From a virus, in UHGV virus genome UHGV-1370141: DNA of 64,000 nucleotides. One strand, 5' to 3'. Each line of letters opens with the position of its first letter. Position 1 is the first letter of the stretch. Below, piece after piece: positions 502 to 61,494 of this stretch. The position numbers were made by a program, and so were the translations under genes. Under the pieces are notes generated by a model. The model was given only the letters and a program-made list of their open reading frames with translations, did not search any database and was not told where the DNA came from.

Positions 502-601
502 ACTAGTTCTCCAGTTGGATTTATACATTTCCGTGTTCCGTAGAACGAAATCACGGCGCGGACAGCTGGAACTCCTTTGTTGTGTGCCCTAATGATAATA
601 T

Positions 602-1126: not shown

Positions 1127-1199
1127 AATTGATGCACAGGGATAAACCGCGTTCCACCAATCGCCAACTCAACCAAAATCGCTATATACGTTTTAGACA

Positions 1200-1574: not shown

Positions 1575-1776
1575 CTGGATTCTCCTTAGGCTCGAAAGGT
1601 GATTCAGGTGGCAGCGTTCCTAACGCACCTTGAATACAGGCTGTCAGTGCAGGTTTACCAAAACACACCTGACCGATCTTACCCATGTTGGGATGCTGGA
1701 GAAATGCTTTTGCGCGTTCGTATTCTTTCCAGCAAATGCTTGTATCCATTCCACCTACACCGAAACTGTTTAACAT
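1540..1776 (-). CDS. Hypothetical small protein
   Basis: 78-aa ORF; AGGAGA RBS; 35-nt overlap with downstream gene. Confidence 0.45.
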   Translation of the reverse strand: MLNSFGVGGMDTSICWKEYERAKAFLQHPNMGKIGQVCFGKPALTACIQGALGTLPPESPFEPKENPDVTRNPNPVSI

Positions 1777-1842
1777 AAGTAGCTCTCCTGACGTAAAATT
1801 CTCACACTCATAGTGAGGAACGTCAAGAGAGCCTTTATTGTT

Positions 1843-2286
1843 TTAGAAAGTTTTGCTGAAATCCACCCATTCTTTATCGTGAGAATAGGTTGCTTTGTAG
1901 CCACGACGAATGAAATACTCTTTCGCTTCTTTGCACTTCGTGTACATCCCAATGGCAATTTCACCGAATGCTTCATCAGCGGCTATCGCTTTGAAGATTT
2001 CTTTCATTACCCCACGCTGACGGTAATCAGGCAGCACGTATAACGAACGAATTTTGAGTACCCCGTTGCGATTACGGTAACTGCAATAACCCACCGCAAC
2101 ATCGTCGATATAAATCAGAACAACACAGTTGCCTTCGATCAGTTGACGCACGTTTAATTTCGGTACAGCGGTTTTGATTTTCAGCATCGTTGCTTGGTGA
2201 TCTAAGTAACGGTAATGAAGTGCGAGTAAATCTTTCGCTTGTTCTTCACCGATTTTAGAAAGTGCGTTCAACAAATAAATTTCCAT
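1843..2286 (-). CDS. GNAT-family N-acetyltransferase
   Basis: 147 aa; acetyl-CoA motif A-like LYVLPDYRQRGV(MKEIFKA). Confidence 0.6.
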   Translation of the reverse strand: MEIYLLNALSKIGEEQAKDLLALHYRYLDHQATMLKIKTAVPKLNVRQLIEGNCVVLIYIDDVAVGYCSYRNRNGVLKIRSLYVLPDYRQRGVMKEIFKAIAADEAFGEIAIGMYTKCKEAKEYFIRRGYKATYSHDKEWVDFSKTF

Positions 2287-2318
2287 TTATCAGACCTTAC
2301 AGACGCAAAAAGATGAAA

Positions 2319-2447
2319 TTAAAACCAACGTCCAATGATAAAAGCGGCAGCGGCGAGAAGCAGTACGGTAATAAAACCCGCACCCCATGTTAGTTCCGCG
2401 TTATATAAAGCGCCGATTGCAGCATTGGTAGTATTGACAACAGTCAT
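2319..2447 (-). CDS. Small hydrophobic peptide (42 aa, one TM helix), putative
   Basis: Own translation MTVVNTTNAAIGALYNAELTWGAGFITVLLLAAAAFIIGRWF; GAGGGAAG RBS before ATG; below ORF-track size cutoff. Confidence 0.3.
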   Translation of the reverse strand: MTVVNTTNAAIGALYNAELTWGAGFITVLLLAAAAFIIGRWF

Positions 2448-2461
2448 AGTTCTTCCCTCGT

Positions 2462-2492
2462 AAAACACCCTCCCAGTTACCCAGGAGGGGGT
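2462..2492 (-). terminator. Possible intrinsic terminator hairpin
   Basis: Inverted repeat CCCTCC...GGAGGG followed by T-run on minus strand. Confidence 0.3.
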
Positions 2493-2498
2493 TCTAAC

Positions 2499-2609
2499 TT
2501 AACTGTGCGTAGAGCCTTTGAAAGCCCATCCGTACTTATTAATCAGCCAGTTGAGAGATTTCCCAATAATCCACAACGACCCAAGTGTTAACAGAATACC
2601 CTCAATCAT
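2499..2609 (-). CDS. Small hydrophobic peptide (36 aa), putative
   Basis: Own translation MIEGILLTLGSLWIIGKSLNWLINKYGWAFKGSTHS; ATGA start/stop overlap with upstream ORF; GGAGGGAAG RBS. Confidence 0.3.
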   Translation of the reverse strand: MIEGILLTLGSLWIIGKSLNWLINKYGWAFKGSTHS

Positions 2610-2806
2610 GACTTCCCTCCAACACACCGCCACTCACATTCGCGTTGGTGCCAAATTGAACCCCAGGTGAGCCTAATCGCGTACGCTAAGACCACCCATA
2701 AAATCGCCGTTATACAAAATAGCACGTACAGAATGGCAACCAGCACCATGACGCTAAACCCTAAAACGCTTAGTAACTGACGCCACCAATCAGTTTGCGT
2801 AGACAA
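2606..2806 (-). CDS. Small membrane protein (66 aa, hydrophobic core)
   Basis: TTG start preceded by AAGGAG; start overlaps ATPase stop by 17 nt; hydrophobic stretch LLSVLGFSVMVLVAILYVLFCITAILWVVLAYAI. Confidence 0.4.
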   Translation of the reverse strand: MSTQTDWWRQLLSVLGFSVMVLVAILYVLFCITAILWVVLAYAIRLTWGSIWHQRECEWRCVGGKS

Positions 2807-6596: not shown

Positions 6597-6986
6597 TCAG
6601 TAATCTAATTCGATAGCACCTAACATCTCACCGCGTTCTTCGATGACGATAAGATGGCGGTCACGTGATTTGCTTTTCGCAAGCGTTAGTACAACTGTGG
6701 GGTCACACGTTTTGGTCGTTACAGGAAGCACCTCTTTTGCTACAGAGTCGAGTACGAAATAATAACCCGCAGGGCAGGTTGTCCCACCATCTGCTTTTAC
6801 GAGTATATAGCGTCCATCTGCGCCAACTTCTTGGCACTCGCCTGCATCGCCTTCGCAGACTTCAAAACCCGGTGGGTTGTAGTGATAGTCTGTGTTCGTT
6901 GCCGGGGTAAGTAATAAATCGTCGATGTGTGTAGAAGCCATAACTCCGATTGAGAAAAACGCCAACAAAGCGCAGATAAGACGCAT
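6597..6986 (-). CDS. Small secreted protein (signal peptide)
   Basis: MRLICALLAFFSIGVMAST N-terminus; 6 Cys in mature part. Confidence 0.55.
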   Translation of the reverse strand: MRLICALLAFFSIGVMASTHIDDLLLTPATNTDYHYNPPGFEVCEGDAGECQEVGADGRYILVKADGGTTCPAGYYFVLDSVAKEVLPVTTKTCDPTVVLTLAKSKSRDRHLIVIEERGEMLGAIELDY

Positions 6987-6996
6987 GGTTTACTCC

Positions 6997-7407
6997 TTAG
7001 ATTTTAAGTTTGTCCTGTGCTACAACGATTGGTGCTCCAGAGGTGTCGATAACACCTACAGTCGGCACACCATTTTTGATTTTGAAGAACGGTTTGTTTT
7101 CGCCTGAACACAATTGGTTGTCTTTGTATTCGATTTTCTGTGCTTTCCAAGTTTCCAGGTTGAGTACCGACATAGGGCTGTCGTAGCACCAGGCACCACC
7201 TTGCTCAACAACGAAAACATATCTGTTACCTTTGTATTCAAACAAATTCTTTGTCTGGCAATACAGACCGTCAATTTCTGTGCAGTAGAATTCATCGGTA
7301 CTGTTGACGTATTTGATACCCGCCGGTAGCTTTATTGTTTTTGCTGCTACGTTAAGAGAGAACAGAACAGTTACAGCAACGAGTAAAGTTTTGATAAACG
7401 TTTTCAT
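6997..7407 (-). CDS. Small secreted protein (signal peptide)
   Basis: MKTFIKTLLVAVTVLFSLNVAA then KT; Cys-containing mature region. Confidence 0.55.
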   Translation of the reverse strand: MKTFIKTLLVAVTVLFSLNVAAKTIKLPAGIKYVNSTDEFYCTEIDGLYCQTKNLFEYKGNRYVFVVEQGGAWCYDSPMSVLNLETWKAQKIEYKDNQLCSGENKPFFKIKNGVPTVGVIDTSGAPIVVAQDKLKI

Positions 7408-7422
7408 GACAGACTCCTTAAA

Positions 7423-7905
7423 TTAATTAACCGTAGCTACGTATTTCTTAACCAGATAGGCGAATTCATTAACGCCGATATCGCCAAACCAAACCAGGTA
7501 ACCTGGGTCGACGTTGTAATAGTAACCTACCACGACATGGGTCTGCGGGTTATAAAGCGTCGTGATGTATTCCCAACCACAAGCATTGCTTTTGCAAGCG
7601 GTAGATTCAAGCCAGATTTTGCCGTTGATTTGCACGGGAATAACATCGCCGCCAGGACCATCCATCACGCCATCTTTACCGAATAACCCGTCTAGTCCGA
7701 CAGGTTTCAACGCTTTATCGATTGCGGCTTTATAAGTCGCATCGTCGGTATAGAGTGTGTTGATATCAGGACATGCACTGGGTTGTTCAGCCCAGGCTTC
7801 CGGGTTACAACTAAGTGCTTGTTTTACACTAGCCGCTTCTGCGTTAAAGGTAAAGCCCGTGAACAGAACCGCCACGAAGAACATCAGGGTATGTAAACGT
7901 TTCAT
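7423..7905 (-). CDS. Small secreted protein (signal peptide)
   Basis: MKRLHTLMFFVAVLFTGFTFNAEA signal; contains ACKSNACG loop. Confidence 0.55.
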   Translation of the reverse strand: MKRLHTLMFFVAVLFTGFTFNAEAASVKQALSCNPEAWAEQPSACPDINTLYTDDATYKAAIDKALKPVGLDGLFGKDGVMDGPGGDVIPVQINGKIWLESTACKSNACGWEYITTLYNPQTHVVVGYYYNVDPGYLVWFGDIGVNEFAYLVKKYVATVN

Positions 7906-7923
7906 TGTAAATTCTCCATTAAA

Positions 7924-8310
7924 TTATTCAGCGCTACGATTTAAAGTAATACGACCGATCAGTTCTGCATTATGGAAGAAGTCCACAGCAGTATAGTTAC
8001 CGACCTCTAACGGATGAATACTGACTGACATGACTTTTGGTTGTTCGCAGGCGATATCCGTCAGACGTTGGTAGACTTGTGCACGAGTGTCAGCAATGAG
8101 TAATCCGGTACACGATTCACCACGCACTAAACGATAAACTTGCAGTTTACCGAAACTGCGCATTAACGTAGGCGACTCATCCGGGTTGATAATGGGTGAA
8201 TCAGGAGCCGGTTCGTAATGGCGGACGTCCGAATCGCCGAAAGCATAAGTGGCCGTAATACCGACTGCACAGAAAATAATGATGGTATAAAGTATAGTTC
8301 TGATATTCAT
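7924..8310 (-). CDS. Small secreted protein (signal peptide)
   Basis: ATG at 8310 (ORF track uses GTG at 8316); MNIRTILYTIIIFCAVGITATYAFG signal. Confidence 0.5.
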   Translation of the reverse strand: MNIRTILYTIIIFCAVGITATYAFGDSDVRHYEPAPDSPIINPDESPTLMRSFGKLQVYRLVRGESCTGLLIADTRAQVYQRLTDIACEQPKVMSVSIHPLEVGNYTAVDFFHNAELIGRITLNRSAE

Positions 8311-8338
8311 TTTCACGCACTCTAAAAAAGATTAATAC

Positions 8339-31507: not shown

Positions 31508-32419
31508 ATGATAGAATTAACCACACCGACAGTATCCGATCAATTGTATTCTGAAGCAAGAACGTTAAATGTTATTACTACATCCAAATGTAATCTGGAC
31601 TGTAGTTTCTGCGGCGGAGCCTATTACATGCATAGAGAGGATACAACCGCAGAAGTACAAAAGAAAAGTATTATCGAGGCGCTGGAAAATAACCCAACCA
31701 TTACAAACATTCAATGGTCAGGGGGTGAACCATTACTCGCTTCGCGTAAAATTGATACCCTTATAGAAGAGATAAGGGAGAAGTATCCTCGTTGCGATCA
31801 TTACCTCTATACCAACGGTTTAAAGATGCGTAAAACGCATCTCCCGTTGTTAAAGGGTTTCGATAGTATCTTTTTTAGCATGGACGGATTCAAAGAATCA
31901 GAGCGCCCATTCATGCGGATTATCGAAGAAAAACAATACGAGGTTTTGGAGACAATTTACGAGTTGAAAAATATTCGTACTTGGGCAGTCTTGACGCGAG
32001 AACGTATTGGTGATAAACGCTGGTATGAGGATATAATTGCGTTACATAATCACATCTACCATTACGGTTTTCGCGAGATGTCGCTAGTTTTGGACAAAAA
32101 CATGCCAAAACCGTTATCTCCCGATCACGTTATGAACTTTATTTACGGGTATTTTAGAATTCAGGAAAATATAGAAAGACTGAACTCGTCCAATCGAAGC
32201 GAGTGCGCGTTTACGCTAAACGCGTTATTTGATGAACCCTGTAATACATGTAGTCGTTGTTTTCGTATCGAGTCTGACGGTGCCCAGAACCAAGTAAAAA
32301 ATGTTGAAATCGTAACGCAGCATGGCTGTAGTGACTTGGCCAGAAAGGTTGGCTTAGAAGCTTACGATTATATACGACGAGTGGTAGGGGCTAAGAATAG
32401 GATTCCAGCAAAATTGTGA
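31508..32419 (+). CDS. Radical SAM enzyme (paralog A)
   Basis: CNLDCSFCGG (CxxxCxxC with aromatic) and GGEPLL SAM motif; C-terminal extra Cys (CNTCSRC). Confidence 0.75.
   Translation: MIELTTPTVSDQLYSEARTLNVITTSKCNLDCSFCGGAYYMHREDTTAEVQKKSIIEALENNPTITNIQWSGGEPLLASRKIDTLIEEIREKYPRCDHYLYTNGLKMRKTHLPLLKGFDSIFFSMDGFKESERPFMRIIEEKQYEVLETIYELKNIRTWAVLTRERIGDKRWYEDIIALHNHIYHYGFREMSLVLDKNMPKPLSPDHVMNFIYGYFRIQENIERLNSSNRSECAFTLNALFDEPCNTCSRCFRIESDGAQNQVKNVEIVTQHGCSDLARKVGLEAYDYIRRVVGAKNRIPAKL
32102..32184 (+). repeat. 83-nt tract identical to 34620..34702 (gene-conversion tract between radical-SAM paralogs)
   Basis: Identical DNA read by eye; further identical tracts 31572-31630 = 34090-34148 and 31811-31854 = 34329-34372. 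Confidence 0.7.
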
Positions 32420-32480
32420 TATTTTTACAGAGAATGAATTATAATGTGCCTTAGCTGGCACTGAACCAGTAGGTGTTAAA

Positions 32481-32879
32481 ATGGCGATTGGTTTATCTTC
32501 TTTAAAAGCGCGTTTGGATAATATAGATTCTTCCGCGCTAAAAAACACTGGAGCAGTACAGAACTATATTCGTGGAAAGGCTACGAATAATGTCGATCTA
32601 TTTGGCGGCCAACCTAAAAACCATTACGACTGTGGCGGTAGCTGTAGCTGGACGTGCTCTAGTTGTTCTGGTGGTTGTACCGGTAATGCTTCAGGAGGTT
32701 GTGGTTCCTCATGTTCAGCAAACTGTGTTTCTGGTTGTAGTTCTGGATGTTCAGGTTGCTCTAGTTCATGTTCTGGAGGCTGCACGGGGACATGTATAGG
32801 CCAATGTACGACTACATGTACAGGTACATGTAGTCGTACCTGTCATGGTGGCTGTTCACAATCGTGTACGGGAAGATAA
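32481..32879 (+). CDS. Cys-rich precursor-like peptide 2 (132 aa; about 20 Cys)
   Basis: Shares DCGGSCSWTCS junction (32 nt DNA identical to 31234-31265) then Cys/Ser/Gly/Thr core. Confidence 0.6.
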   Translation: MAIGLSSLKARLDNIDSSALKNTGAVQNYIRGKATNNVDLFGGQPKNHYDCGGSCSWTCSSCSGGCTGNASGGCGSSCSANCVSGCSSGCSGCSSSCSGGCTGTCIGQCTTTCTGTCSRTCHGGCSQSCTGR

Positions 32880-32882
32880 GAA

Positions 32883-33092
32883 ATGATAAGTCTTAAAAAC
32901 ATACGCGACAGATTAGTAACGGCAGAAGGGTACATTACCACAGCAGGAGCAAACAACTATATTGCAAACCAAGGTACAGTGTCATCTACTAATAACCTTT
33001 CTGGTTTACCGTTGAGTCACTATAACTGTAACGGTGGGTGTAGCTGGTCCTGTAGCGGTAGTTGTAGCCGTGGTGCTGGCGGTAGTAAGTAG
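32883..33092 (+). CDS. Short Cys-rich precursor-like peptide 3 (69 aa; 4 Cys)
   Basis: Leader similar to peptides 1 and 2 (KNIRDRL; NNYIANQGT), core NCNGGCSWSCSGSCS. Confidence 0.5.
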   Translation: MISLKNIRDRLVTAEGYITTAGANNYIANQGTVSSTNNLSGLPLSHYNCNGGCSWSCSGSCSRGAGGSK

Positions 33093-33115
33093 TAGAAACG
33101 TGTCAGAGGTATTCA

Positions 33116-34003
33116 ATGAAAAACGATTTACATTTAGCATATAACACTACATTTAACCATCCTTTGCAAATCTCTTCTCCAGATTCTGTACGTTATCATT
33201 TAAGTGATGACGTTCGTTTAATTACCATGCTACCTGGCGAATGGCCGAAATTACGGGGCCGTGATATCGTCAACCGTGATAATATCTCCGTAGAAAATAC
33301 TTTTACAATTCGTGATCTGCCGGTCGAACGTGTGATTGTTTTTACAGGAGATGATGAACTTTATGGAATGATTGTTGATGGTAAATACTTCTTCAGTGAC
33401 GGGGTTTTAAATGCTGGTAGCGATTTAGAACTTTTTTTTACACCGTTTGCTGAGCTTGACGCTAAGCCTATGGTTCGCAGATGGTGGAGTCCAGATTACA
33501 TGGGGGCTTTTCCGTATTACTATACTCTTGTTGGTAAGGATGTTGAAGAGTATTCCGATAGTGAACCATACACCAACATTGAAGGTTATCAGGACCTCGG
33601 AATTGCACATTTAGCTGATTTAATGGCTTATAGCTATAAGTTCGAATGGATTCGTGAACGTTCTGTTTGGAAAGCCATTACTGACGACCATGTTATTACG
33701 AAACGTATTCGTAAACCATGGATGCAACATCTTGTTCAAATACGATTTGGCCAAAGTCCAGTAACCGAGGCTGATATTTCTAAACTTGTTAGTTTTTTAT
33801 TGTCTAAGGTTGAATTGACTGATGAAGAAGCCGAAGCTGTTAAGCCGATGCTTGATCGTATTGTGACCTTAGAAGACCTCAAAAGAATGAATAGTCGTTA
33901 TAACGATCTTAATCGGTTGCTAGAGGCGTATAATTCGACAAAGGTTTTAAAACCTGGAGTCAATTTCGACGAAGATCCGTTGTTCGCTATCGACTATAAT
34001 TAA
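33116..34003 (+). CDS. Hypothetical protein within the radical-SAM cluster
   Basis: 295 aa; GAGGT RBS; no recognised motif. Confidence 0.55.
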   Translation: MKNDLHLAYNTTFNHPLQISSPDSVRYHLSDDVRLITMLPGEWPKLRGRDIVNRDNISVENTFTIRDLPVERVIVFTGDDELYGMIVDGKYFFSDGVLNAGSDLELFFTPFAELDAKPMVRRWWSPDYMGAFPYYYTLVGKDVEEYSDSEPYTNIEGYQDLGIAHLADLMAYSYKFEWIRERSVWKAITDDHVITKRIRKPWMQHLVQIRFGQSPVTEADISKLVSFLLSKVELTDEEAEAVKPMLDRIVTLEDLKRMNSRYNDLNRLLEAYNSTKVLKPGVNFDEDPLFAIDYN

Positions 34004-34025
34004 ATAATTAATGGAGTCACCTGCA

Positions 34026-34949
34026 ATGGCGACCAATGCGGAACCAAAATTATCAGATCAGTTATTTGACAATCCAACAATATTAGCCGTTATTACTACA
34101 TCCAAATGTAATCTGGACTGTAGTTTCTGCGGCGGAGCCTATTACATGAATCGTGAAGATTCTTCTCGAGAGTTTCAACGTGACCGAATTATGGAGGCGT
34201 TAGAAGCTAACCCAACAATCACCGAGATTCAATGGACGGGTGGTGAGCCTTTGTTAGCCACTCGTAAAATTGAGGCGTTTGTTGACGAGTTAAAAGTAAT
34301 TCGTCCAGAGCTCAAACATCAGTTATATACCAACGGTTTAAAGATGCGTAAAACGCATCTCCCGTTGTTAAAACAATTTGATAATGTGTATGTTAGCATC
34401 GACGGGTTTGAGTTGTCTGAACGCCCTTTTAAGCGTTTTATTAACGATGGTTGCTACGAAGCTTTAGAAGTAATGCATGAGCTTGAAAATGTTCATACAT
34501 GGGCCGTTTTAACTCGAGAACAGTTGGGTAACAAACGGTGGCATGAAGACATTATTGAGCTTCATAATGCGATCTATCACTACGGTTATCGTACCATGAC
34601 GTTGCTGTTAGACGCGAATATGCCAAAACCGTTATCTCCCGATCACGTTATGAACTTTATTTACGGGTATTTTAGAATTCAGGAAAATATAGAAAGACTG
34701 AATGTTTCCAACTCGAAAAGGTGTGACTATGTCGTAAGCAAAGTTTTTGATGGTGGGTGTAACGTATGCAGCAATAGTTTATGGTTAAGAGCAGATGGAA
34801 CCGAATATCAGTTGCAAAATGCCCCGAGATTATTAGAATCGGGATGTAACCAATTAGCTTGTTCCATCGGGTTAGAAGCCTACGAGTATATTCGACGAGT
34901 GGTTATGGCCAACCGTAATAGTGGAGTATTAAATGAACCAAGAAAATAA
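34026..34949 (+). CDS. Radical SAM enzyme (paralog B)
   Basis: ATG at 34026 has GGAG RBS (track ATG 34011 has none); CNLDCSFCGG, GGEPLL; identical DNA tracts shared with paralog A. Confidence 0.75.
   Translation: MATNAEPKLSDQLFDNPTILAVITTSKCNLDCSFCGGAYYMNREDSSREFQRDRIMEALEANPTITEIQWTGGEPLLATRKIEAFVDELKVIRPELKHQLYTNGLKMRKTHLPLLKQFDNVYVSIDGFELSERPFKRFINDGCYEALEVMHELENVHTWAVLTREQLGNKRWHEDIIELHNAIYHYGYRTMTLLLDANMPKPLSPDHVMNFIYGYFRIQENIERLNVSNSKRCDYVVSKVFDGGCNVCSNSLWLRADGTEYQLQNAPRLLESGCNQLACSIGLEAYEYIRRVVMANRNSGVLNEPRK
34620..34702 (+). repeat. 83-nt tract identical to 32102..32184
   Basis: See paired repeat. Confidence 0.7.
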
Positions 34950-36255
34950 TTACCCGAAACAGTTGACTTACCAGATTGTTACAAACTTGTCGTGTAATTT
35001 GGACTGTGAGTATTGTTACGAGCGTAAATATCCCCGCAATAACAAAGCAGCAGATATTGTAGATTTTCTTCATGCCTGTTTCGAGCGTGATAAAGATTTA
35101 CCAAACGTAGAAGTCGTCATTGACATTATCGGCGGCGAGCCGTTTATGCAGCCTAAGCTTCTAATGGCCGCTTTCGAAACAGCCGAGCAGTTGTGTGAAG
35201 AACATAAACGCCCGTTTATGTTTAGTATCTCTACTAATGGGACATTATTAGATAGGCCGTTGAACAGGGAAATTATTGAACGTTGGAAGGACAGACTTTC
35301 TATCGGGGTGTCTATTGATGGGTTACCTGAGTCGCACGATAAGTACCGTATTTTTACAACGAGTCGCGAAGGTTCTTACGAGGCCGCTGTACGTGGTTAC
35401 AATTATCTAAAAGAAGTAGGTATCGCGGAGCTTGGGGTTAAAGCGACATTTACTTTGGAAACGCTCCCACATTATGCGGCGGGTATGAAATCCCTAATCG
35501 ATTTGGCTGGAGGTGGAACCATTTCTGGTAACGTAACCTTCGAAGACATTATGCCACGGAGTATGGCTACGTCGATAGCGCTACAAATGATGGATGTAGT
35601 CGATTATTGGGTTGAAAAGGGTTTACACACCAACCCACGTAATACCCTATCACATATCATCCCGGAAGGGTTAGATTTCGACACTATCTGGGAACCGAAC
35701 TGGCGGGATCAGCTACTTTACAACGATACTGTACGTTTAAACCCGGAACGCTTGCGTCCGTTCTGCGGGACATTAACTCACATGACTTGTTTAGGGTTTG
35801 ACAGGAAGATTTTCGGTTGTAACCGTTTCATGTCGACTGTAACGTCACGTTCTGCGGTATTTGAGTTAGTCGGTCGTGAGTTTGTTAGCTTAGACGGTGG
35901 GAAACTGCTGGAAGAGATTCAGACGCAATACACCAACTATCCTGAGACGTGCTTAGGTTGTCCGATGAAACACGCTTGTGGTAGCTGTGCAGCAGCTTCC
36001 TACGAGAATGGGGAAGGGACGTTAGAAGACCGTAAAGCGTATCACGCTGAACGTCGTCAATGTGGTTGGACAACTGCAAAATTAATGGTCGCGGAATACT
36101 GGAAACAGAAGATGGGTACAACATCTGTGAAGGATTTCCACGATAATAGCATGTGTTACTGCCCTCGCTGTGTACGTGAACGTGCCCAAAAAGAAAAACA
36201 ATTGAGAGAAGCCAAAGATGAAGCCAATTCTGATCCACAATATTACGAAGCGTAA
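34933..36255 (+). CDS. Radical SAM enzyme with C-terminal SPASM-like Cys cluster
   Basis: CNLDCEYC, GGEPFM; C-terminal FCGTLTHMTC...CLGCPMKHACGSC...CYCPRC; start overlaps upstream stop by 17 nt. Confidence 0.75.
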   Translation: MNQENNYPKQLTYQIVTNLSCNLDCEYCYERKYPRNNKAADIVDFLHACFERDKDLPNVEVVIDIIGGEPFMQPKLLMAAFETAEQLCEEHKRPFMFSISTNGTLLDRPLNREIIERWKDRLSIGVSIDGLPESHDKYRIFTTSREGSYEAAVRGYNYLKEVGIAELGVKATFTLETLPHYAAGMKSLIDLAGGGTISGNVTFEDIMPRSMATSIALQMMDVVDYWVEKGLHTNPRNTLSHIIPEGLDFDTIWEPNWRDQLLYNDTVRLNPERLRPFCGTLTHMTCLGFDRKIFGCNRFMSTVTSRSAVFELVGREFVSLDGGKLLEEIQTQYTNYPETCLGCPMKHACGSCAAASYENGEGTLEDRKAYHAERRQCGWTTAKLMVAEYWKQKMGTTSVKDFHDNSMCYCPRCVRERAQKEKQLREAKDEANSDPQYYEA

Positions 36256-36790
36256 ATTCCGTTTTCTGGAAAAGTTTTTAGAAACTACGAAACTGTTTGG
36301 CTGTTATGTGCAGATTAACGGCGAAGATTTCAATGACGATGTTAAGCGTTTATTAATTCGTCACGGAATCACCGTTGTTATCCCGATGTATTGTACAGAA
36401 CTTACCGAACTTTCTGTGGCCGAAATCGAGAAACAAAATCCAGGCTTTGAACAGCGCGTGCTGGAATTTCCTAAACATAAAATCGTTCTTTTACGCCGCG
36501 CTTTGCAAGAGCCGAGCGTTGAATCTGTTGCTGCTCTAGGTTTATCGTTTCCTGGTGTGACAATTTATGTCACACGAAACCCAGAGTCCACCATCGATGG
36601 TTTTTACGATGAAAGGGAAACTTTTCATAGTTTAGTTTATCCCGAGCTTACAGAAGACGAACGTCAAGGACTACATATTGACTGGGACTCAAATTTTGAT
36701 AGTAAGTTTCGTAAAATCGATTTTGATCTTCTGATCGAGCTGGGTTTAATTAAAGGAGAAGACGAATGCCTGCTCTTGACAAAAGCTTAA
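36218..36790 (+). CDS. Hypothetical protein (cluster-associated)
   Basis: 190 aa; overlaps upstream gene end, translationally coupled. Confidence 0.5.
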   Translation: MKPILIHNITKRKFRFLEKFLETTKLFGCYVQINGEDFNDDVKRLLIRHGITVVIPMYCTELTELSVAEIEKQNPGFEQRVLEFPKHKIVLLRRALQEPSVESVAALGLSFPGVTIYVTRNPESTIDGFYDERETFHSLVYPELTEDERQGLHIDWDSNFDSKFRKIDFDLLIELGLIKGEDECLLLTKA

Positions 36791-37440
36791 TAAACGAAGA
36801 TATTCGCGCCAGATTTTTTAGCCGACTTTCCCCAATTGATCGCCACGGAAACTTTTTGGGTCATATAGGTACTGAAGATCGCGGCAGAACGGGTTTTTGT
36901 ACAATGCTTCATTACAAACTACTCGATGGCATGTCCGATGAAGACGCGTTAGATCAAATGCGTAGTTACAATATGTCAGATATTGAAGCAAATTTCACCC
37001 TGAAAAAAGCAAAAGAGTTCATTTCAGATGTATTGGAGATAGATCTGGATGAAATTCGAAGTAACGTTCGTTCAACAGCACGATATATTTATTTAGATGT
37101 TCAAAAGATCATGAAGGCGTTGGAGTCGCGTTACGAAGCAGAACGTTACGAACCAATTCAGCTGAATGATCGTCATTTTCAGGCTGATGCAATCTCCCGA
37201 CAAATGTTAGGGCAATATATCCAATCTGAAACTGCGCCAGAATATTGGTTGGATACCGCCAATACGCGTTTAGAACCCTTTACATTAGAAGAATGTAAGG
37301 AACTATTGTCCGAGATCGTAAAACGTGATCAGAAACTGCATGGACAAATGACCGCGCAGAAAAAAGAGCTTCGCCTCTTAGCTGAACAGCGTGACTACGA
37401 CACTATCCGTGCACTTGCACTGGAAATGGGATTAGAATAA
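36766..37440 (+). CDS. Hypothetical protein (cluster-associated)
   Basis: 224 aa; AAGGAG RBS; followed by terminator. Confidence 0.55.
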   Translation: MPALDKSLINEDIRARFFSRLSPIDRHGNFLGHIGTEDRGRTGFCTMLHYKLLDGMSDEDALDQMRSYNMSDIEANFTLKKAKEFISDVLEIDLDEIRSNVRSTARYIYLDVQKIMKALESRYEAERYEPIQLNDRHFQADAISRQMLGQYIQSETAPEYWLDTANTRLEPFTLEECKELLSEIVKRDQKLHGQMTAQKKELRLLAEQRDYDTIRALALEMGLE

Positions 37441-37509: not shown

Positions 37510-38040
37510 TTAAGCAGTAAAACCGTCCAATTCACCGTTGGTGGTGGCCAGGTCAATACGATTATCGACAACCTTCGGTGTAATTACGAAAGTTGCCATT
37601 ACACCCGGTTTATAACGGAGGTTCTGTTCAGTAACGGTGCACGTCACGGTACGCAGAGTGACGTTTTCATGTTCGTCTTTCTGGTCTTCGGTGCTGTACA
37701 CAACGTCACCTGGCGCGATAGCGTCGTCAGGTTTTACTTTGTTGATGTAATATTGTAACCAAGCGCGGAGTTCGTTTTCTTGAACCCAGCGAGACAGATC
37801 ATCAGTTAGTTCAATCCGTCCTACAACACCTGGCTCCAGACGATCGTAATGCAGTTCGATTGCACCTTTGAAATTCTCAGAACCTGGTAGTGCAGTCATG
37901 GTAACTTTGGTATTCTTACTTTCGCCTTCCAGCGCAGTAGGGAGACCAAAGGACACTTCTTTATCAGTAATCTGATGTGGTAGCTCAGTGTTAGCAGCAT
38001 TATAAAGCGCGACCAACATCATCTGGTTAGTAGCGGCCAT
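37510..38040 (-). CDS. Hypothetical protein, paralog of 38112..38648 (C-terminal GELDGFTA)
   Basis: 176 aa; shared NTK(V/I)T(M/L)TA...NFKG...HY.RL and C-terminal GELDGFTA. Confidence 0.55.
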   Translation of the reverse strand: MAATNQMMLVALYNAANTELPHQITDKEVSFGLPTALEGESKNTKVTMTALPGSENFKGAIELHYDRLEPGVVGRIELTDDLSRWVQENELRAWLQYYINKVKPDDAIAPGDVVYSTEDQKDEHENVTLRTVTCTVTEQNLRYKPGVMATFVITPKVVDNRIDLATTNGELDGFTA

Positions 38041-38089
38041 TATCTTAGGTCCTTAATAGAACAAGTTAGAGAAATATCGGGGGAGGTCA

Positions 38090-38099
38090 CCCCCCCCCC
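38090..38099. repeat. C10 homopolymer in conserved intergenic context TCA-C(n)-GATT
   Basis: Read directly; preceded by GGGGGAGG giving a G/C hairpin; about 50 nt upstream of 37510..38040 start. Confidence 0.8.
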
Positions 38100-38111
38100 G
38101 ATTTAACTTAC

Positions 38112-38648
38112 TTAGCCACCGACACCCGGCGCAGTGAAGCCATCAAGTTCACCTTCCAGACCGCCCAGTGCTACCTTCTCAGGAGCTGGGTTGGAATAAG
38201 TGAAAGTAGCAATAGTACCCGCCAGGAATTTAATGTGGCCATCGTTTACTTTGACAGTGTAAACTTTAGCACCGCTGTCGCCTTCGGATTTAACGATAGT
38301 GAGTTCGCTCTCTGCAAACGCGTCATCGACATAACCTTTAGTAACCATTTCTTTGTTCAGTTTGGTTACAATGGCAGAGTTTTCCAGATCGAGACTACCA
38401 GCTTGTTCGTAAGCTTTAGCACCGATCAGGTCTTGGGATGCCAGACGGATATAATGGAATTCTTTCTCGCCTTTGAAGTTCTGGCTTTCTGCCTTGGCGG
38501 TCAGTGTAATTTTGGTGTTACGACCAGCGTCTCCGCTGTGCGCTTCGACAGCACCAAAATCGACATCACCAACCGTCAGATTAGAAGCGGTTGCAGAGTT
38601 TTTAGCAATTACAGCTTCGATGAGCTGTTGTTTGAAGGCTTTAGCCAT
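38112..38648 (-). CDS. Hypothetical protein, paralog of 37510..38040
   Basis: ATG at 38648 has GAGG RBS (track start 38684 lacks one); C-terminal GELDGFTA. Confidence 0.55.
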   Translation of the reverse strand: MAKAFKQQLIEAVIAKNSATASNLTVGDVDFGAVEAHSGDAGRNTKITLTAKAESQNFKGEKEFHYIRLASQDLIGAKAYEQAGSLDLENSAIVTKLNKEMVTKGYVDDAFAESELTIVKSEGDSGAKVYTVKVNDGHIKFLAGTIATFTYSNPAPEKVALGGLEGELDGFTAPGVGG

Positions 38649-38786
38649 CTTTTTTACCTCGTAAGTGGTAGGGGTGGATTGCATAAGAAAGTTATTTTAG
38701 ACATTTCCTAAAATATAGATATGACGGTTGGCAGTAGGCGCTAACCTGAAAAAATAATTTTTCTTAATTTTAATAAGGGTGAGTTT

Positions 38787-39266
38787 ATGCTAAAACGCAT
38801 TCTCGTGGTCGTTGCTTTTGTAATGACGTTGGCAGGTTGTGCTATTCAGCCGAACGCAGAAGGTCAGTTCTCCACCGTACCTGTTGACCAACATGATATG
38901 GTCATTTACACCTGTACAGGTGCTTCTCAAGAATTCGTCGATTTTAAACCGGTACCGTCTAGCCTAAAACTGATGCCCCTTTCGGTGTTAGTCATGGATA
39001 CAGGGGCGAATTGGGTCGCTACATGGGACGAAGGTAAAATCGAATCTCCGCAACTTTATAAAGACCTGTTAGGTAAGGTGGACGGTAACTTAAACGTTGT
39101 TACCGGTGAGCGCTATTACCGTGTAAACGGGTTACTGTCAAAAACTCCAACGTTTGCGTATTCTACCATCAACTACAAAACAGGTGAAGGTAAAGGTGTA
39201 ACGTTCTTCAGATGTCACGAAGGTAGCATTCCGGATACCGGCACTATGCTGCACCCGGTAGAATAA
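38787..39266 (+). CDS. Lipoprotein (lipobox LAGC), isolated on opposite strand
   Basis: MLKRILVVVAFVMTLAGCA signal with lipobox; own terminator downstream. Confidence 0.6.
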   Translation: MLKRILVVVAFVMTLAGCAIQPNAEGQFSTVPVDQHDMVIYTCTGASQEFVDFKPVPSSLKLMPLSVLVMDTGANWVATWDEGKIESPQLYKDLLGKVDGNLNVVTGERYYRVNGLLSKTPTFAYSTINYKTGEGKGVTFFRCHEGSIPDTGTMLHPVE

Positions 39267-39269
39267 TAA

Positions 39270-39307
39270 ATACCCTCCTGCTTAGCAGGAGGGTAGGTTT
39301 ATTTTGT
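39270..39307. terminator. Bidirectional intrinsic terminator
   Basis: Hairpin ACCCTCCTGC-tta-GCAGGAGGGT then TTTATTTT; A/T-rich on both sides. Confidence 0.65.
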
Positions 39308-39386: not shown

Positions 39387-39902
39387 TTAGATTTTAACTA
39401 AGGCGCTCCAATCGATAGGGCTTTGTTTCACGACTTTCGCAGTACCGCGATTCGGTGACCAGAACGTGATATTCGGTTGGTTACGAACGTCGATATGCAA
39501 CCAACTGATGTCGCATTCGATAAAGTGAATAAACGGAAACTCATCAGGATTAGCGGCAATATAATCGTGGACTTGTTTTACCGTTGAATCTAACAGTGTC
39601 GCGTCGAACGCATTACCGAACTTGTGCTGACTCCCTGAATCGGAATAGAGTTGTAACGCACGTTGTTTATAGTTACCGCCCTTAGGCTTTTCTTGATTGA
39701 TGAAAAAGTCTAAGGTTCTTAGGCCACGCTGTTGCGCAGCAGACGAGTTAATCACCATTCTGCCGAAACGGTTACGAATCTGTTGCAGCGAAATCATTAA
39801 CAACGGGTTCATAAACCGAATTGCAGAATCACCGTATTTGGCGATGTACGATTGCGGTACTAACTCTTTGAGTTTAAAGTTACTCGGATTTGGATGAAAC
39901 AT
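39387..39902 (-). CDS. Peptidase M15 (VanY / L-Ala-D-Glu peptidase-like) cell-wall hydrolase, putative endolysin
   Basis: SQHKFGNAFDATL matches M15 S.H..G.A.D zinc-binding motif; C-terminal WLHIDV. Confidence 0.55.
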   Translation of the reverse strand: MFHPNPSNFKLKELVPQSYIAKYGDSAIRFMNPLLMISLQQIRNRFGRMVINSSAAQQRGLRTLDFFINQEKPKGGNYKQRALQLYSDSGSQHKFGNAFDATLLDSTVKQVHDYIAANPDEFPFIHFIECDISWLHIDVRNQPNITFWSPNRGTAKVVKQSPIDWSALVKI

Positions 39903-40545
39903 CTTCCCTCCCAGACAGAAAAGCCCGTTTGATGTTCAGGTATTTGACATTAACGGGACAACCTGTGGTGATATCAACACGTTCGTGGTCAGGAATAGCA
40001 GGCTCCTTAAACTCACGAACGAACAAATAGTTTCGATTGTAATCTAACGTACGGTAATCGTTAGTGGTATAAGACGGCTTCGCGTTAGGGTCTACGTAAG
40101 CATCCCAACCGAACCCCGCCACGGCTTTATAAAACGTTTGGCAGATATACGGTGAGATTTCCAACGACTGCATAATACGCAGGAATGTTAAGTCAGAGAA
40201 CTCTTTATCGATAATACGCGAAACGTTACCACCCGGTGTCATGGGATAGCTACGCTCCGTGTTACATTTTTGATAGAGTAAGTCGTGAATGCAGGCCGCA
40301 GGTGCCCACGGTCCGTCAGGATGGAAAATTCCCTGGAGGTGTTCAGGAATTGACGCTAAATCGGTAACGAACCCTTTCGGTGCTGTTAACCACAGTTGCG
40401 TGTCAGGCAATACACCCGTTAAATAAACCGCACGGTCTAAGTGTACGTGGTCGTGATAAATCTCACGTAACGTAAACGGATAATGGTAATCCTCCGTTAA
40501 TACAAACCACTTATTGTCTAAACGTTTATATTGAAGCTTCTCCAT
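39880..40545 (-). CDS. Hypothetical protein
   Basis: ATG at 40545 with AAGGTG RBS (track GTG 40554). Confidence 0.5.
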   Translation of the reverse strand: MEKLQYKRLDNKWFVLTEDYHYPFTLREIYHDHVHLDRAVYLTGVLPDTQLWLTAPKGFVTDLASIPEHLQGIFHPDGPWAPAACIHDLLYQKCNTERSYPMTPGGNVSRIIDKEFSDLTFLRIMQSLEISPYICQTFYKAVAGFGWDAYVDPNAKPSYTTNDYRTLDYNRNYLFVREFKEPAIPDHERVDITTGCPVNVKYLNIKRAFLSGREDVSSKSE

Positions 40546-40661
40546 TACCCACACCTTTCCTTACAAAAACCAGAAGAACTCTTGCCCACGCTTTTCGTCT
40601 TTACGTTTTCGACCAGACGTTAACGCTTTCCACAATAACGCTAAGAGTTTAGCAAACCAGT

Positions 40662-41252
40662 TCATTTTACTAACCCCGCTTTTACCGCATAATCTGCCAT
40701 TTCTCTGAAGACGCGGCCGTACCAACCGTAGGTGTATTTCTCGTTTCTCTTACGTTTTTCGGAGATTTCCGTGTAGTAAGTTACTTGGTGCGAGATTAAC
40801 GCAAAGATTAAAATGCTCAACCCTTCATCTTTACGATATTTCAGGTAGGCGTTCAACGCACCCAGTGTCTTAGGACCCATACCGCCGTCGGTGTCAATAT
40901 CTGCGTAAAGTTTCCCTTCGTTATTTAAAACGTTGAGAATACGTTGTAACGATTTCACACAGTTAGCACGCCCTGCGTTAATACCAAAATCAAACATCCG
41001 GTCTGCGAGTAACGGTGAGATAGCGAAAATCTCATCAAGTTTGAGCTTCTTCCACCAACCGCGATCGTAAATATCAAACGCTTGTGCACGGGTGAGGTCT
41101 TTCATTTTCCCTGTGTAGCCGTATTCGCGTGCAGTAGTTAAAGTTACACCGTGACAGGTTTCTCCACCTTTGTCGTCAGGGTCGTTGACGTACCCGCCTT
41201 CTAAATCCGTTTTGGATTCAATAATACCTTCTTTAGTCCAACGTTCAGCCAT
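40662..41252 (-). CDS. Glycoside hydrolase family 108-like lysozyme with C-terminal peptidoglycan-binding domain
   Basis: N-terminal EGGYVNDPDDKGGETCHGVT typical of GH108; C-terminal DTDGGMGPKTLGALNAYL typical of PG_binding_3. Confidence 0.7.
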   Translation of the reverse strand: MAERWTKEGIIESKTDLEGGYVNDPDDKGGETCHGVTLTTAREYGYTGKMKDLTRAQAFDIYDRGWWKKLKLDEIFAISPLLADRMFDFGINAGRANCVKSLQRILNVLNNEGKLYADIDTDGGMGPKTLGALNAYLKYRKDEGLSILIFALISHQVTYYTEISEKRKRNEKYTYGWYGRVFREMADYAVKAGLVK

Positions 41253-41261
41253 TTTCGTTCA

Positions 41262-41312
41262 ACTCCTCTTTTACACAAAAAAGAAAAGAGGGTGGGGATT
41301 ACCCCCACCCTG
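41262..41312 (-). terminator. Intrinsic terminator
   Basis: Hairpin AGGGTGGGG-attac-CCCCACCCT then T-run on minus strand. Confidence 0.5.
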
Positions 41313-41315
41313 TAA

Positions 41316-41795
41316 TTATTTTTTCTTCTTAGCGCGTGATGGCTTAGCTGGCGGTGTTTCAACAGCCGGTTTACGTGCAACACGCACTGTAAAACCACCA
41401 ACCCAGGTCAGACACTCAGGACGGAAGAAAATACCGTGTTCGATTGCGCTACCGTCCAACGGTAACTCACCAACCTGTTCTACCCATACATCGTCTTCTG
41501 TAAGGGTTAGGCTATACTGTTCGTTAATTACGGGCAGTAGGTCAGCGGTAGTCGTTGCAGACTCCACTAACAGTTTCGGTAATACGTTCAGGAAATACAA
41601 ACCTGCGTCAATGCGGTTATACTGGAACGTTTGTTCGTTAGTGTAACCGAGATTCTTAATTGACGCAACTGTGATTTCGGTATTGTACGTACCGGTGGTT
41701 ACGACCGGGTCACCCAGCGTGACTTTGGTGGTGTCGAACTCAGCGTCTGGGTTAGCCTTTTTAATAAGGTCGAAGATAGTTTCTTGATTGGTCAT
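41316..41795 (-). CDS. Hypothetical protein (Lys-rich C-terminus)
   Basis: 159 aa; AGAGGA RBS; C-terminal PAKPSRAKKKK. Confidence 0.55.
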   Translation of the reverse strand: MTNQETIFDLIKKANPDAEFDTTKVTLGDPVVTTGTYNTEITVASIKNLGYTNEQTFQYNRIDAGLYFLNVLPKLLVESATTTADLLPVINEQYSLTLTEDDVWVEQVGELPLDGSAIEHGIFFRPECLTWVGGFTVRVARKPAVETPPAKPSRAKKKK

Positions 41796-41808
41796 TACTG
41801 TAATCCTC

Positions 41809-42657
41809 TTAATCTAAGAATCCCGGTAAGACCGGATTAGTCTGCGCTAATTCAATCTTCGACTTCGGACGATCGGTGCCGTTAAAGTGGATTAACAGAT
41901 TACCGGTCAGGTTAGAACACAGCGGGCTGAGCGTCAGCACCAACACACGCGTGAACTTCGTATTTGCGCCTTCGTAACCTGCGGTTGGACCATCGTAAAT
42001 AATCTTCGCACCATACAGGTTGTTAGCCGCGTTCTTAGGTACACTTACCCATTTCTCATCAACGACGTTAGCCAGTTTAGTGGCTAACTCAGCCAGGTCG
42101 ACGGTGTCGTTGATAGTAATCGGGTCAAGGTAATCTTTTTCTGCGGTGAAATCAATCGGGTGAGAATAAACCGCAGCGTTACCTTTCTTAGTAGACGGAT
42201 ACTCTACCAGATTCTCTAATTGAGTAACTGGTAACAGTTCAGTCAGGTCAATAGGATCACGCAGCGTAAGTGTTACTACACCGCACCACTCGTAAGATTT
42301 CTCGTTAGCGGTAAGCTGATGGGTTTCACCTTCAACTTTTGCGTCAACGATATCCGAGGGTAAAATATTTAGGTTGTATTTTGCGTTAATCGCATTAAGC
42401 AAATCCGATGCGGTTACCACACTGTCGTTACCGAACACCAACTCACCGGTTAGGTAGTCAGGTAAATTACGACGGTGGTAAGTCACGGTTAAAGTAGTAG
42501 ACTCATCGCCTTTGAGTTTAGAGGTCAGAACCACCTGGGTATCAACCCCAGTACCGGTAGGTTCTCCGATATCAACATCACTGAAAGTCAACGGTGGACT
42601 AATATTGTTTTCAGTGTTGATGAGTTTTAGCAGTTTCTGTTTTGACGTAAGAGACAT
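41809..42657 (-). CDS. Hypothetical protein
   Basis: 282-aa ORF. Confidence 0.55.
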   Translation of the reverse strand: MSLTSKQKLLKLINTENNISPPLTFSDVDIGEPTGTGVDTQVVLTSKLKGDESTTLTVTYHRRNLPDYLTGELVFGNDSVVTASDLLNAINAKYNLNILPSDIVDAKVEGETHQLTANEKSYEWCGVVTLTLRDPIDLTELLPVTQLENLVEYPSTKKGNAAVYSHPIDFTAEKDYLDPITINDTVDLAELATKLANVVDEKWVSVPKNAANNLYGAKIIYDGPTAGYEGANTKFTRVLVLTLSPLCSNLTGNLLIHFNGTDRPKSKIELAQTNPVLPGFLD

Positions 42658-60713: not shown

Positions 60714-61088
60714 TTATTCGGTTAATTCTCCACACAACACAACGTCGATACCAAACATCATTCCCACTTCTTGAAGTTTGTTCGCCAGTAAGTGACGATG
60801 ACAAAACTTACCTGCGGGACAATAACACATCAAAACCAAATCATCGTGTCTGAGTAATGACACTAAAACTTCGGCGTTGGTATCTAACAGTCGTTCGAGC
60901 TTATATAAATACTTTATCGTGTACTCACGTTCAGCGACAGTGTCCTTGGCAGAGTTTTTATACGCCATTAAGAAATCCCAGTCTGGGGCGAGTTCCTTTC
61001 TCCCCGATTTGACTGTAATATCCACTGCGTGAAATCCTTTCTGCTTAGCTAACCGCCACTTAGCGAGTTGTAACGTCCAGATACGCAT
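60714..61088 (-). CDS. Hypothetical protein with C-terminal CYCPxGxxCHRH motif
   Basis: 124-aa ORF; possible metal-binding Cys/His cluster. Confidence 0.5.
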   Translation of the reverse strand: MRIWTLQLAKWRLAKQKGFHAVDITVKSGRKELAPDWDFLMAYKNSAKDTVAEREYTIKYLYKLERLLDTNAEVLVSLLRHDDLVLMCYCPAGKFCHRHLLANKLQEVGMMFGIDVVLCGELTE

Positions 61089-61285
61089 TAGGAACGGGTC
61101 TGCGATTCAGCCATCAGCGCACAACTTTTCACAGCCTGTGCATGAAGTTCTGTACCCGGTGTGTAATCCTTTATACAATCCTGATACAATTCGCTTTTCT
61201 TTTCTAAAACACGATTGTCACACTCGGCACTTGCTAGTGCCCCTGCGATAAGGATAAAAACTAGAATCGGCAACCAAATTTTCAT
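61088..61285 (-). CDS. Small secreted protein (signal peptide, 4 Cys)
   Basis: MKIWLPILVFILIAGALASA signal. Confidence 0.45.
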   Translation of the reverse strand: MKIWLPILVFILIAGALASAECDNRVLEKKSELYQDCIKDYTPGTELHAQAVKSCALMAESQTRS

Positions 61286-61494
61286 TGCCCACCTCCCATT
61301 CGTTTAGCGTATTCCGTACATGCCATTACTAATTCAGCATAACGTGGGTTATCGACAGTGGTACCTGACATACATTCACGATAAAGGGACTCTTTACGCG
61401 ATTCGTCAGACGTCTTAACGTAGAACATCAGCATCGTTACAATCAGCGCAGTTGAAACAATTGCTGAGATGATATATCCGTCATTTATTTTCAT
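61282..61494 (-). CDS. Small membrane-anchored protein
   Basis: N-terminal TM ISAIVSTALIVTMLMFYV; ATGA overlap with downstream gene. Confidence 0.45.
   Translation of the reverse strand: MKINDGYIISAIVSTALIVTMLMFYVKTSDESRKESLYRECMSGTTVDNPRYAELVMACTEYAKRMGGGQ

Follow-up and report, generated by a model that had tools for sequence, protein, structure and literature searches.

A candidate lysis operon of an SPN3US-like jumbo phage with a putative phospholipase A2 gene between two peptidoglycan hydrolase genes

The 64,000-nucleotide stretch of the virus genome UHGV-1370141 that was analysed here (referred to as the window) carries on its minus strand a compact cluster of four open reading frames (ORFs), in which two peptidoglycan hydrolase genes enclose a putative phospholipase A2 (PLA2) gene and a 34-aa ORF. 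We regard it as somewhat better than an even chance (a probability of about 0.55) that this is a late operon of non-virion proteins, in which the muramidase, the peptidase, the phospholipase and the micro-protein would jointly dismantle the host envelope, while the timing and outer-membrane functions would be encoded at a distant locus. As members of known families the hydrolases are ordinary, and the absence of a holin beside them can largely be explained. The unexpected part is the PLA2-family gene, which stands in tandem with and overlaps its neighbours and has a parallel in the ttsA/ttaP genes of the typhoid toxin islet. The four ORFs, in the order of their reading, are the following.

40662-41252, minus strand: GH108 N-acetylmuramidase with C-terminal PG_binding_3 domain, 196 aa (from Pfam, PHROGs and PDB)
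40561-40665, minus strand: unannotated 34-aa ORF, MNWFAKLLALLWKALTSGRKRKDEKRGQEFFWFL (from the sequence)
39880-40545, minus strand: DUF1353/TtaP-family putative phospholipase A2, 221 aa (from Pfam and the TtaP alignment)
39387-39902, minus strand: M15A-like zinc peptidase with a predicted LAS-like fold, 171 aa (from motif, PHROGs and model)

An earlier note on this DNA had reported the two hydrolase ORFs and a distance of 0.8 kb between them. Both were found where it had placed them and the gap measures 759 nt, but it is fully coding, and the two genes it contains, DUF1353 and the 34-aa ORF, had been overlooked. The ATG of the 34-aa ORF overlaps the TGA stop codon of the muramidase gene (ATGA), an arrangement compatible with translational coupling, and the M15-like gene overlaps the stop codon of the DUF1353 gene by 23 nt. 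The likely start of DUF1353 is the ATG at 40545, which is preceded by GGAAAGG and matches the N-termini of the homologs; the ORF itself extends to a GTG at 40554. Hairpins stand at both ends of the cluster.

41289-41311, minus strand: G+C-rich hairpin with T-run, terminator-like, closing the upstream DUF7941 virion gene (terminator scan); about 37 nt upstream of the muramidase start
39271-39295, both strands: perfect hairpin with an 11-bp stem and T-runs on both strands, bidirectional terminator-like (terminator scan); separates the peptidase gene from a convergent lipoprotein gene

Because of the ATGA and 23-nt overlaps, the full coding and the flanking hairpins, the four ORFs at 39387-41252 look like one compact transcription unit, for which we infer co-transcription and late timing.

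The megablast comparison of the window region with phage records gave no nucleotide-level match. The phage resembles SPN3US only at the protein level, and with it the SPN3US-like jumbo phages (Seoulvirus and relatives); the gene order of the window is that of about 113-177 kb of SPN3US, reversed. The same genes were found with 94-100% protein identity in IMG/VR contigs of 107-225 kb. SPN3US and four near-identical IMG/VR contigs show the hydrolase arrangement as well; as judged from these gene orders, it is conserved synteny and not chance. In the numbering of SPN3US products, RefSeq gpN corresponds to SPN3US_(266-N) of the proteomics papers, which was verified by the masses of gp202 and gp203.

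The GH108-like lysozyme with a peptidoglycan-binding domain, as proposed earlier for 40662-41252, was confirmed by two Pfam domains, both well above their gathering scores: Glyco_hydro_108 (PF05838, E 3.9e-23, 82.2 bits versus 21.2) and PG_binding_3 (PF09374, E 1.5e-16, 60.7 bits versus 24.6). The protein also matched the endolysin family phrog_315 of PHROGs (E 8e-43) and, over residues 6-179, the PDB entries 6v40 (E 5.6e-45), which we take to be TtsA, and 6v3z (E 6.2e-44), deposited as Sen1395. Its EGGYV segment aligns with the solved relatives, and the glutamate of the EGGY motif, presumably the catalytic residue of GH108, is present (E18). NCBIfam returned just a sub-threshold match, to the 'holin-associated N-acetylmuramidase', and the hydropathy scan revealed no signal peptide, signal-anchor-release (SAR) domain, transmembrane domain (TMD) or N-terminal hydrophobic segment. 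In sequence the protein is thus a full-length TtsA/Sen1395 homolog and a predicted muramidase; its SPN3US ortholog is gp156. Since it lacks a signal peptide and SAR domain, is homologous to TtsA and Sen1395 over its full length, and gp156 does not appear in the accessible part of the SPN3US virion table, the endolysin label, which the earlier note had offered for one of the two enzymes, is reasonable for this one.

The gene between the hydrolases belongs to Pfam family DUF1353 (PF07087, E 8.1e-15, 54.7 bits versus a gathering score of 22.5) and had no match in NCBIfam. Its SPN3US ortholog is gp157, and such proteins are widely labelled 'tail assembly chaperone' because many DUF1353 genes follow tail-fibre or DUF4376 genes. 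The DUF1353 member encoded in the typhoid toxin islet, TtaP, has been shown to have PLA2 activity, which was lost with the D85A replacement, and the catalytic residues H70/D71/D85 of TtaP are common to the secreted PLA2s 1LWB and 4AUP (PMC11525133, 2024 JBC). In pairwise BLASTP the window protein was 35% identical to the S. diarizonae TtaP ortholog over 98 residues (E 2e-15), with H87, D88 and D118 opposite H70, D71 and D85 of TtaP, and these three residues are invariant in 26 DUF1353 homologs. The spacing from His to Asp is 15 residues in the short DUF1353 homologs; the jumbo-phage proteins carry a 16-residue insertion there. The helical core is related to that of the fungal and bacterial secreted PLA2s (4aup, 1lwb family). 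These comparisons make it likely that the gene is a member of the PLA2 family and codes for a putative enzyme.

In the case of the second hydrolase, described earlier as an M15-type peptidase, motif, PHROGs and model argue for the assignment but Pfam did not reach its threshold. The residues H93-x6-D100 and H136-x-D138 are invariant in 17 homologs and lie in the signature S-x-H93-x2-G-x-A-x-D100 plus W-x-H136-x-D138, which contains the zinc-ligand and acidic residues of such enzymes. The protein matched phrog_894, 'endolysin', with an E-value of 4.5e-27. Its AlphaFold2 model has a mean predicted local distance difference test score (pLDDT) of 89.8, and the top Foldseek matches in the PDB were all of the LAS fold: LdcB, the Streptomyces Zn DD-peptidase 1lbu and VanXYc, with VldE and hedgehog N-domains as further LAS matches. 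Pfam gave no match at E <= 0.01; Peptidase_M15_3 (PF08291) was met only at E 0.032 and over residues 9-55 (14.8 bits versus a cut-off of 23.2). NCBIfam had no match, and neither the sequence nor the profiles A1 and A2 found a meaningful one in the PDB. No signal peptide was detected. The SPN3US ortholog gp158 is of equal length and 79% identical; at 28-35% identity it has homologs that carry the annotation endolysin or Peptidase_M15_3, in Vibrio phages of about 40 kb and in KVP40-like phages. We therefore accept the product of 39387-39902 as M15-type by predicted fold and motif, not by curated family membership. Profile searches, proposed earlier as the test of both folds, clearly support GH108, while M15 stays sub-threshold in Pfam and is backed by phrog_894.

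The 34-aa ORF has a hydrophobic N-terminus and a basic cluster, with a net charge of +5. Homologs at the same position were found in the SPN3US-like phage SPLA3, in phiEaH2 (annotated as gp076) and in locus L015. The gap between GH108 and DUF1353 holds an ORF of 27-52 aa in 13/13 related jumbo phages, mostly unannotated, and these ORFs are of two types: a hydrophobic NWF...RRKR type (window, SPN3US, phiEaH2) and a single-TMD type (SPN3US-like SPLA3, Huxley and others). Both types are present in SPN3US-like phages, the window phage having the first type alone. Further gap micro-ORFs are listed below by survey locus.

L002, 5052-5159 and 5250-5342: gap micro-ORFs
L006, 2821-2937: gap micro-ORF
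L007, 2888-3004: gap micro-ORF

The neighbourhood of DUF1353 was surveyed in the 80 best IMG/VR loci (16 jumbo-phage, 63 non-jumbo), the non-jumbo loci being scored for a recognised lysis gene within 2.5 kb of DUF1353. GH108 lies immediately upstream in 13 of the 16 jumbo-phage loci, the M15-like gene immediately downstream in eight, and the lipoprotein gene within 3 kb in 13. The cluster is not uniform: DUF1353 and M15 overlap in Phobos and CR5 without an adjacent GH108 gene, and phiEaH2 and Huxley keep GH108 and DUF1353 and lack M15. Among the non-jumbo loci a recognised lysis gene was found nearby in 16/63. Fifteen of these, low-G+C small-phage loci, have a Phage_holin_4_1 gene immediately downstream of DUF1353, and in 14 of the 15 an endolysin gene is situated about 0.3-0.45 kb upstream (eight of the phrog_465 M15 type, six Amidase_3), which gives the order endolysin, TMD protein, DUF1353, Phage_holin_4_1; the sixteenth locus (L084) has an adjacent Amidase_2 only. 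The order DUF4376, endolysin, small TMD protein, DUF1353 is common to those small phages and the jumbo phage Huxley, with non-homologous endolysins. Phage FNU1 has the order DUF1353, ORF176, amidase.

For bacteria, 80 loci with TtsA-like muramidases were taken from species-representative genomes and DUF1353 was sought within 4 kb. It was found in one of them, the typhoid toxin islet, represented by S. diarizonae (L095:3070-6069; pltA, ttsA, ttaP and cdtB, with 178 nt between ttsA and ttaP). A general linkage of GH108 and DUF1353 in bacteria was therefore rejected. Membrane-protein ORFs in holin or inner-membrane spanin (i-spanin) positions were seen in 68/80 prophage loci with TtsA-like muramidases, an approximate figure that rests on uncurated ORFs.

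The absence of a recognisable holin or spanin pair between the hydrolases, as stated in the earlier note, holds locally, but it would reflect dispersed lysis genes and not a lack of them. Hydropathy scanning of every ORF of at least 25 aa and six-frame lipobox scanning found no transmembrane or lipobox ORF in 39.3-41.3 kb, and PHROGs searches with all small transmembrane ORFs of the window returned no holin or spanin family. No holin gene adjoins the endolysin gene, and there is neither an adjacent pair of i-spanin and outer-membrane spanin (o-spanin) nor a single-protein spanin (u-spanin). The lipoprotein gene at 38787-39266 was tried as a spanin and rejected because it is convergent, a type-II membrane partner is lacking next to it, and its product is 159 aa long with no TMD at the C-terminus. 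The signal-peptide lytic transglycosylase that had been noticed at the window start is indeed there, running off the edge, and candidates for the missing functions are situated beside it, 0.8-6 kb beyond the left edge of the window.

1-501, minus strand: 5' part (167 aa) of a lytic transglycosylase (SLT) with Sec signal peptide and SLT ES motif; phrog_4067 'transglycosylase', E 1.5e-43; ortholog of SPN3US gp198
L091, 11257-11736 and 15406-16368: candidate holin-like multi-TMD protein and i-/o-spanin homologs
L005, 31428-31688 and 35017-35976: counterpart candidates beside the secreted SLT

Contig L091, which is 97.9% identical to window positions 1-3000, continues the window past its left edge and holds the full SLT gene. 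Downstream of SLT it codes for a 169-aa protein and then for one of 159 aa that has two or three TMDs at its N-terminus, followed by two further genes, two virion genes, and homologs of an i-spanin (phrog_8719) and of its partner (phrog_8165). In SPN3US an 86-aa two-TMD protein, gp200, is found at the corresponding place. A separated spanin pair was catalogued in the related phage CR5 by Kongari et al., in whose census SPN3US is not listed. The CR5 i-spanin had no match in the window; in SPN3US it matches gp204 (RefSeq gp062), which is followed by the lipoprotein gp205. The candidate holin and spanin proteins had no match in NCBIfam. The o-spanin homolog of the window lineage begins with MKSLLFIMILCVGLVSNSYG, without a canonical lipobox, and may therefore not be lipidated; SPN3US has LLLTGC. 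Dispersed lysis genes, as in T4, are the simplest explanation for the lack of a holin near the operon, the distant ones being predicted candidates.

The preferred reading of the cluster, which stands among the late structural genes of an SPN3US-like jumbo phage, can be outlined as follows. The GH108 muramidase would cut the glycan strands and the M15A-like zinc peptidase the peptide stems or cross-links, so that the two hydrolases would attack different bonds of the peptidoglycan, while the DUF1353/TtaP-type PLA2 would produce lysophospholipids and destabilise membranes. Being cytoplasmic and without signals, these proteins would act together in lysis after the inner membrane has been breached; once triggered, the phospholipase may attack the inner membrane, the outer membrane from its inner leaflet, or both, and speed the collapse of the envelope. 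The micro-protein, possibly membrane-seeking, would fill the position of the TMD protein of other phages, and whatever a canonical cassette provides for timing and for the outer membrane would be encoded beside the secreted SLT, past the left edge. None of them carries an export signal and their SPN3US orthologs do not belong to the virion, and joint action as cytoplasmic late lysis proteins is the reading that we favour. The enzymatic activities of the window proteins, like any lysis role of the PLA2 or the micro-protein, are predictions, that of the phospholipase coming from gene order only. Help of the PLA2 in bringing the signal-less hydrolases across the inner membrane is a possibility.

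Several observations weigh against this reading. The M15-like protein fails the Pfam threshold for M15, and the Foldseek scores of its model are marginal (E about 0.02, probability 0.90-0.97, TM 0.37-0.46). The 34-aa ORF reaches a maximal 15-residue Kyte-Doolittle mean of 1.1 and has no predicted TMD; the idea of a strongly amphipathic helix was rejected, since 746 of 2000 shuffles reach its hydrophobic moment, and it is therefore described just as hydrophobic and basic. The literature on SPN3US transcription timing and on jumbo-phage transposon sequencing contained no data on these genes. No experiment ties any DUF1353 protein to phage lysis, and neither the papers mentioning DUF1353 in the library searched nor a search for phospholipases and lysis cassettes contained a discussion of such a role. 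Deletion of ttaP in S. Typhi caused no envelope or secretion phenotype (PMC11525133). The pairing with a TtsA-like muramidase in one of 80 bacterial loci means that it is not general, and in 47/63 non-jumbo loci no lysis gene was recognised near DUF1353; at least 13 of those 47 have it behind DUF4376 or tail-fibre genes.

The last of these points, the DUF4376-DUF1353-M15 order without adjacent GH108 in CR5 and Phobos, and the lack of a detectable envelope phenotype for TtaP would also agree with a lysis role for GH108 alone. DUF1353 and the M15-like protein would then serve elsewhere, in tail-fibre maturation with DUF4376, in envelope remodelling or in superinfection exclusion with the lipoprotein, and their adjacency to GH108 would be an accident at a module boundary. 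We think this unlikely, as all four ORFs are linked by overlapping stop and start codons, lysis genes (endolysin, TMD protein, holin) stand on both sides of DUF1353 in an unrelated phage clade, and the only tested activity in the DUF1353 family is phospholipid hydrolysis, not a chaperone activity. Alternatively, the working lysis system may be the distant locus of SLT, multi-TMD protein and spanins, while the operon would be an accessory or back-up set that the phage can do without and that extends its reach to more hosts or wall chemistries. In both L091 and SPN3US, SLT does have a multi-TMD protein and spanin homologs in its vicinity, the endolysin of phiKZ is likewise a transglycosylase clustered with holin and spanins (gp141-144), the cluster varies (M15 missing in phiEaH2 and Huxley, GH108 not adjacent in CR5), and TtsA-type enzymes can reportedly be substrate-selective, a point ascribed to Geiger et al. 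in 2018. SLT, however, carries a Sec signal that looks cleavable, whereas an endolysin gated by a holin would be expected to be cytoplasmic or of SAR type, and GH108 is retained beside DUF1353 in 13/16 jumbo loci; this alternative seems to us rather more unlikely still.

The earlier suggestion that one of the hydrolases is carried in the virion for entry was not supported by the proteomics of SPN3US, a relative of the window phage. In its form in which the M15-like peptidase (perhaps with DUF1353) would be a virion or tail component and GH108 the endolysin, it could draw on the two or three spectra of gp158 in two preparations of intact SPN3US virions, with none in tailless particles (PMC5105663), on the frequent position of DUF1353 genes next to tail-fibre and DUF4376 genes, and on the embedding of the cluster among DUF7941 virion-protein paralogs. 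In a later study, however, gp158 was undetected in wild-type virions and the authors considered the earlier signal probably non-specific (PMC5694885). The accessible part of SPN3US proteome table S4 lists gp153-155 and gp160, with 20-280 spectra for the products of neighbouring genes, and lists neither gp156, gp157 and gp159 nor the SLT ortholog gp198; moreover, the homologs of the M15-like protein in the Vibrio phages are annotated endolysins. Because gp156 and gp157 are absent and gp158 appears only in traces, we regard an entry enzyme as very improbable. A bolder extension of the preferred reading would see in the DUF1353/TtaP PLA2s an unrecognised class of phage lysis proteins that disrupt membranes enzymatically, perhaps targeted or gated by the micro-protein, with ttsA-ttaP as a domesticated copy of a phage module of muramidase and phospholipase; in its strongest form the PLA2 and the micro-protein would bring the signal-less muramidase and peptidase to the wall, and no classical holin would be needed. 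We put this forward as a tentative and rather doubtful proposal.

One of the nearest known counterparts is the TtsA/TtaP islet, an independent juxtaposition of the same two families with aligned His/Asp/Asp residues, and a holin gene is missing beside both pairs. In the islet, however, the two genes are convergent, with ttaP co-transcribed with cdtB, whereas the window genes are in tandem with overlapping stop and start codons, include the micro-ORF and the M15-like peptidase, and have no toxin genes; the phage DUF1353 protein, 221 aa versus 125 aa for TtaP, has N- and C-terminal extensions besides its insertion of 16 residues. With the S-R-Rz/Rz1 genes of lambda and gp141-144 of phiKZ (PMC12894885) the window shares a cytoplasmic endolysin which has to get across the inner membrane, and spanin homologs in its lineage, but its endolysin gene adjoins a phospholipase-family gene and a second hydrolase gene and no holin or spanin gene. 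The phiKZ endolysin is a transglycosylase and that of the window a GH108 enzyme, and the phiKZ cassette is likened to it here by description, not by sequence. The GH108 family is shared with phage N4 gp61 as well, which carries an N-terminal SAR domain (PMC12642591), unlike the window enzyme with its lack of an N-terminal hydrophobic segment. The M15-like protein has its H-x6-D ... H zinc motif and a predicted LAS-like fold in common with the M15 endolysins, such as the L-alanyl-D-glutamate peptidase of T5 and the proteins of the Vibrio phages VP5, phiVC8 and J2, and it reaches 28-30% identity with the endolysin-annotated Vibrio phage proteins, but it is sub-threshold for M15_3 and is the second hydrolase of its operon, not a sole endolysin. 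Mycobacteriophages use in lysis a wall hydrolase, LysA, together with a lipolytic enzyme, LysB, a cutinase-like serine esterase that attacks the outer lipid layer and has mycolyl-arabinogalactan as its substrate. The analogy is functional only, without homology, since the window gene codes for a His/Asp PLA2-type fold in a phage of a Gram-negative host.

The operon is flanked by the following genes.

38787-39266, plus strand: 159-aa lipoprotein, convergent, lipobox LAGC with Ala at +2 (lipobox scan); phrog_9559, E 1.7e-71
36766-37440, plus strand: DUF4376 protein (Pfam E 9.7e-07, 29.7 bits versus a cut-off of 25)

The lipoprotein is the sole one found in the 64-kb window. It had no match in Pfam or NCBIfam, and phrog_9559 has no assigned function; its ortholog is SPN3US gp159, and it is linked to the cluster in 13/13 jumbo loci with a GH108 gene. 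It is of the outer-membrane type and may serve in regulation, inhibition or exclusion. The DUF4376 family is found directly upstream of endolysin or DUF1353 genes in other jumbo and small phages. Four DUF7941 paralogs bracket the operon (37510-38684 and 41316-42657, minus strand) in a block much shorter than that of SPN3US, where the counterparts (gp150-155 and gp160) are abundant virion proteins, also of tailless particles; the operon therefore sits within a block of head-associated structural paralogs.

Elsewhere in the window, three radical-SAM genes on the plus strand (31508-32419, 34011-34949 and 34933-36255) flank a 132-aa ORF (32481-32879), the C-terminal 85 residues of which are nearly all Cys/Ser/Gly/Thr repeats (CGGSCSWTCSSCSGGCTG...). 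The region 31508-36255 looks like a precursor with maturases of the type of ribosomally synthesised and post-translationally modified peptides in a jumbo phage; the radical-SAM pair has the same place in SPN3US and CR5. At 6597-8316 (minus) four consecutive proteins of 129-160 aa each have an N-terminal signal peptide or TMD, apparently a periplasm-directed set. Relatedness is seen for at least two of them, 6597-6986 and 7924-8316, which phrog_5248 matches (the latter weakly). At 2319-2468 and 2606-2806 (minus) a 66-aa two-TMD ORF overlaps the end of an 840-aa SMC-like gene and a 49-aa ORF with a C-terminal TMD lies nearby; they are homologs of SPN3US RefSeq gp079 and gp077. Tandem proteins of 65 and 70 aa at 61088-61494 (minus), apparently related, each have an N-terminal hydrophobic segment and a conserved Cys. 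No holin or spanin family of PHROGs was matched by the small membrane ORFs at 2319-2806 and 61088-61494.

Among giant phages, the lysis cassette of phiKZ was defined only in 2026, and its proteins differ from those proposed here for an SPN3US-like phage. If a PLA2 does take part in lysis, this would add an enzymatic breach of Gram-negative membranes to the holin, spanin and disruptin routes, and the widespread annotation of its family as 'tail assembly chaperone' would be corrected. It would also provide a hypothesis for the role of TtaP and for the way in which the signal-less TtsA crosses the inner membrane. A trio of muramidase, peptidase and phospholipase may be of practical interest for enzyme-based antibacterials against Gram-negative bacteria.

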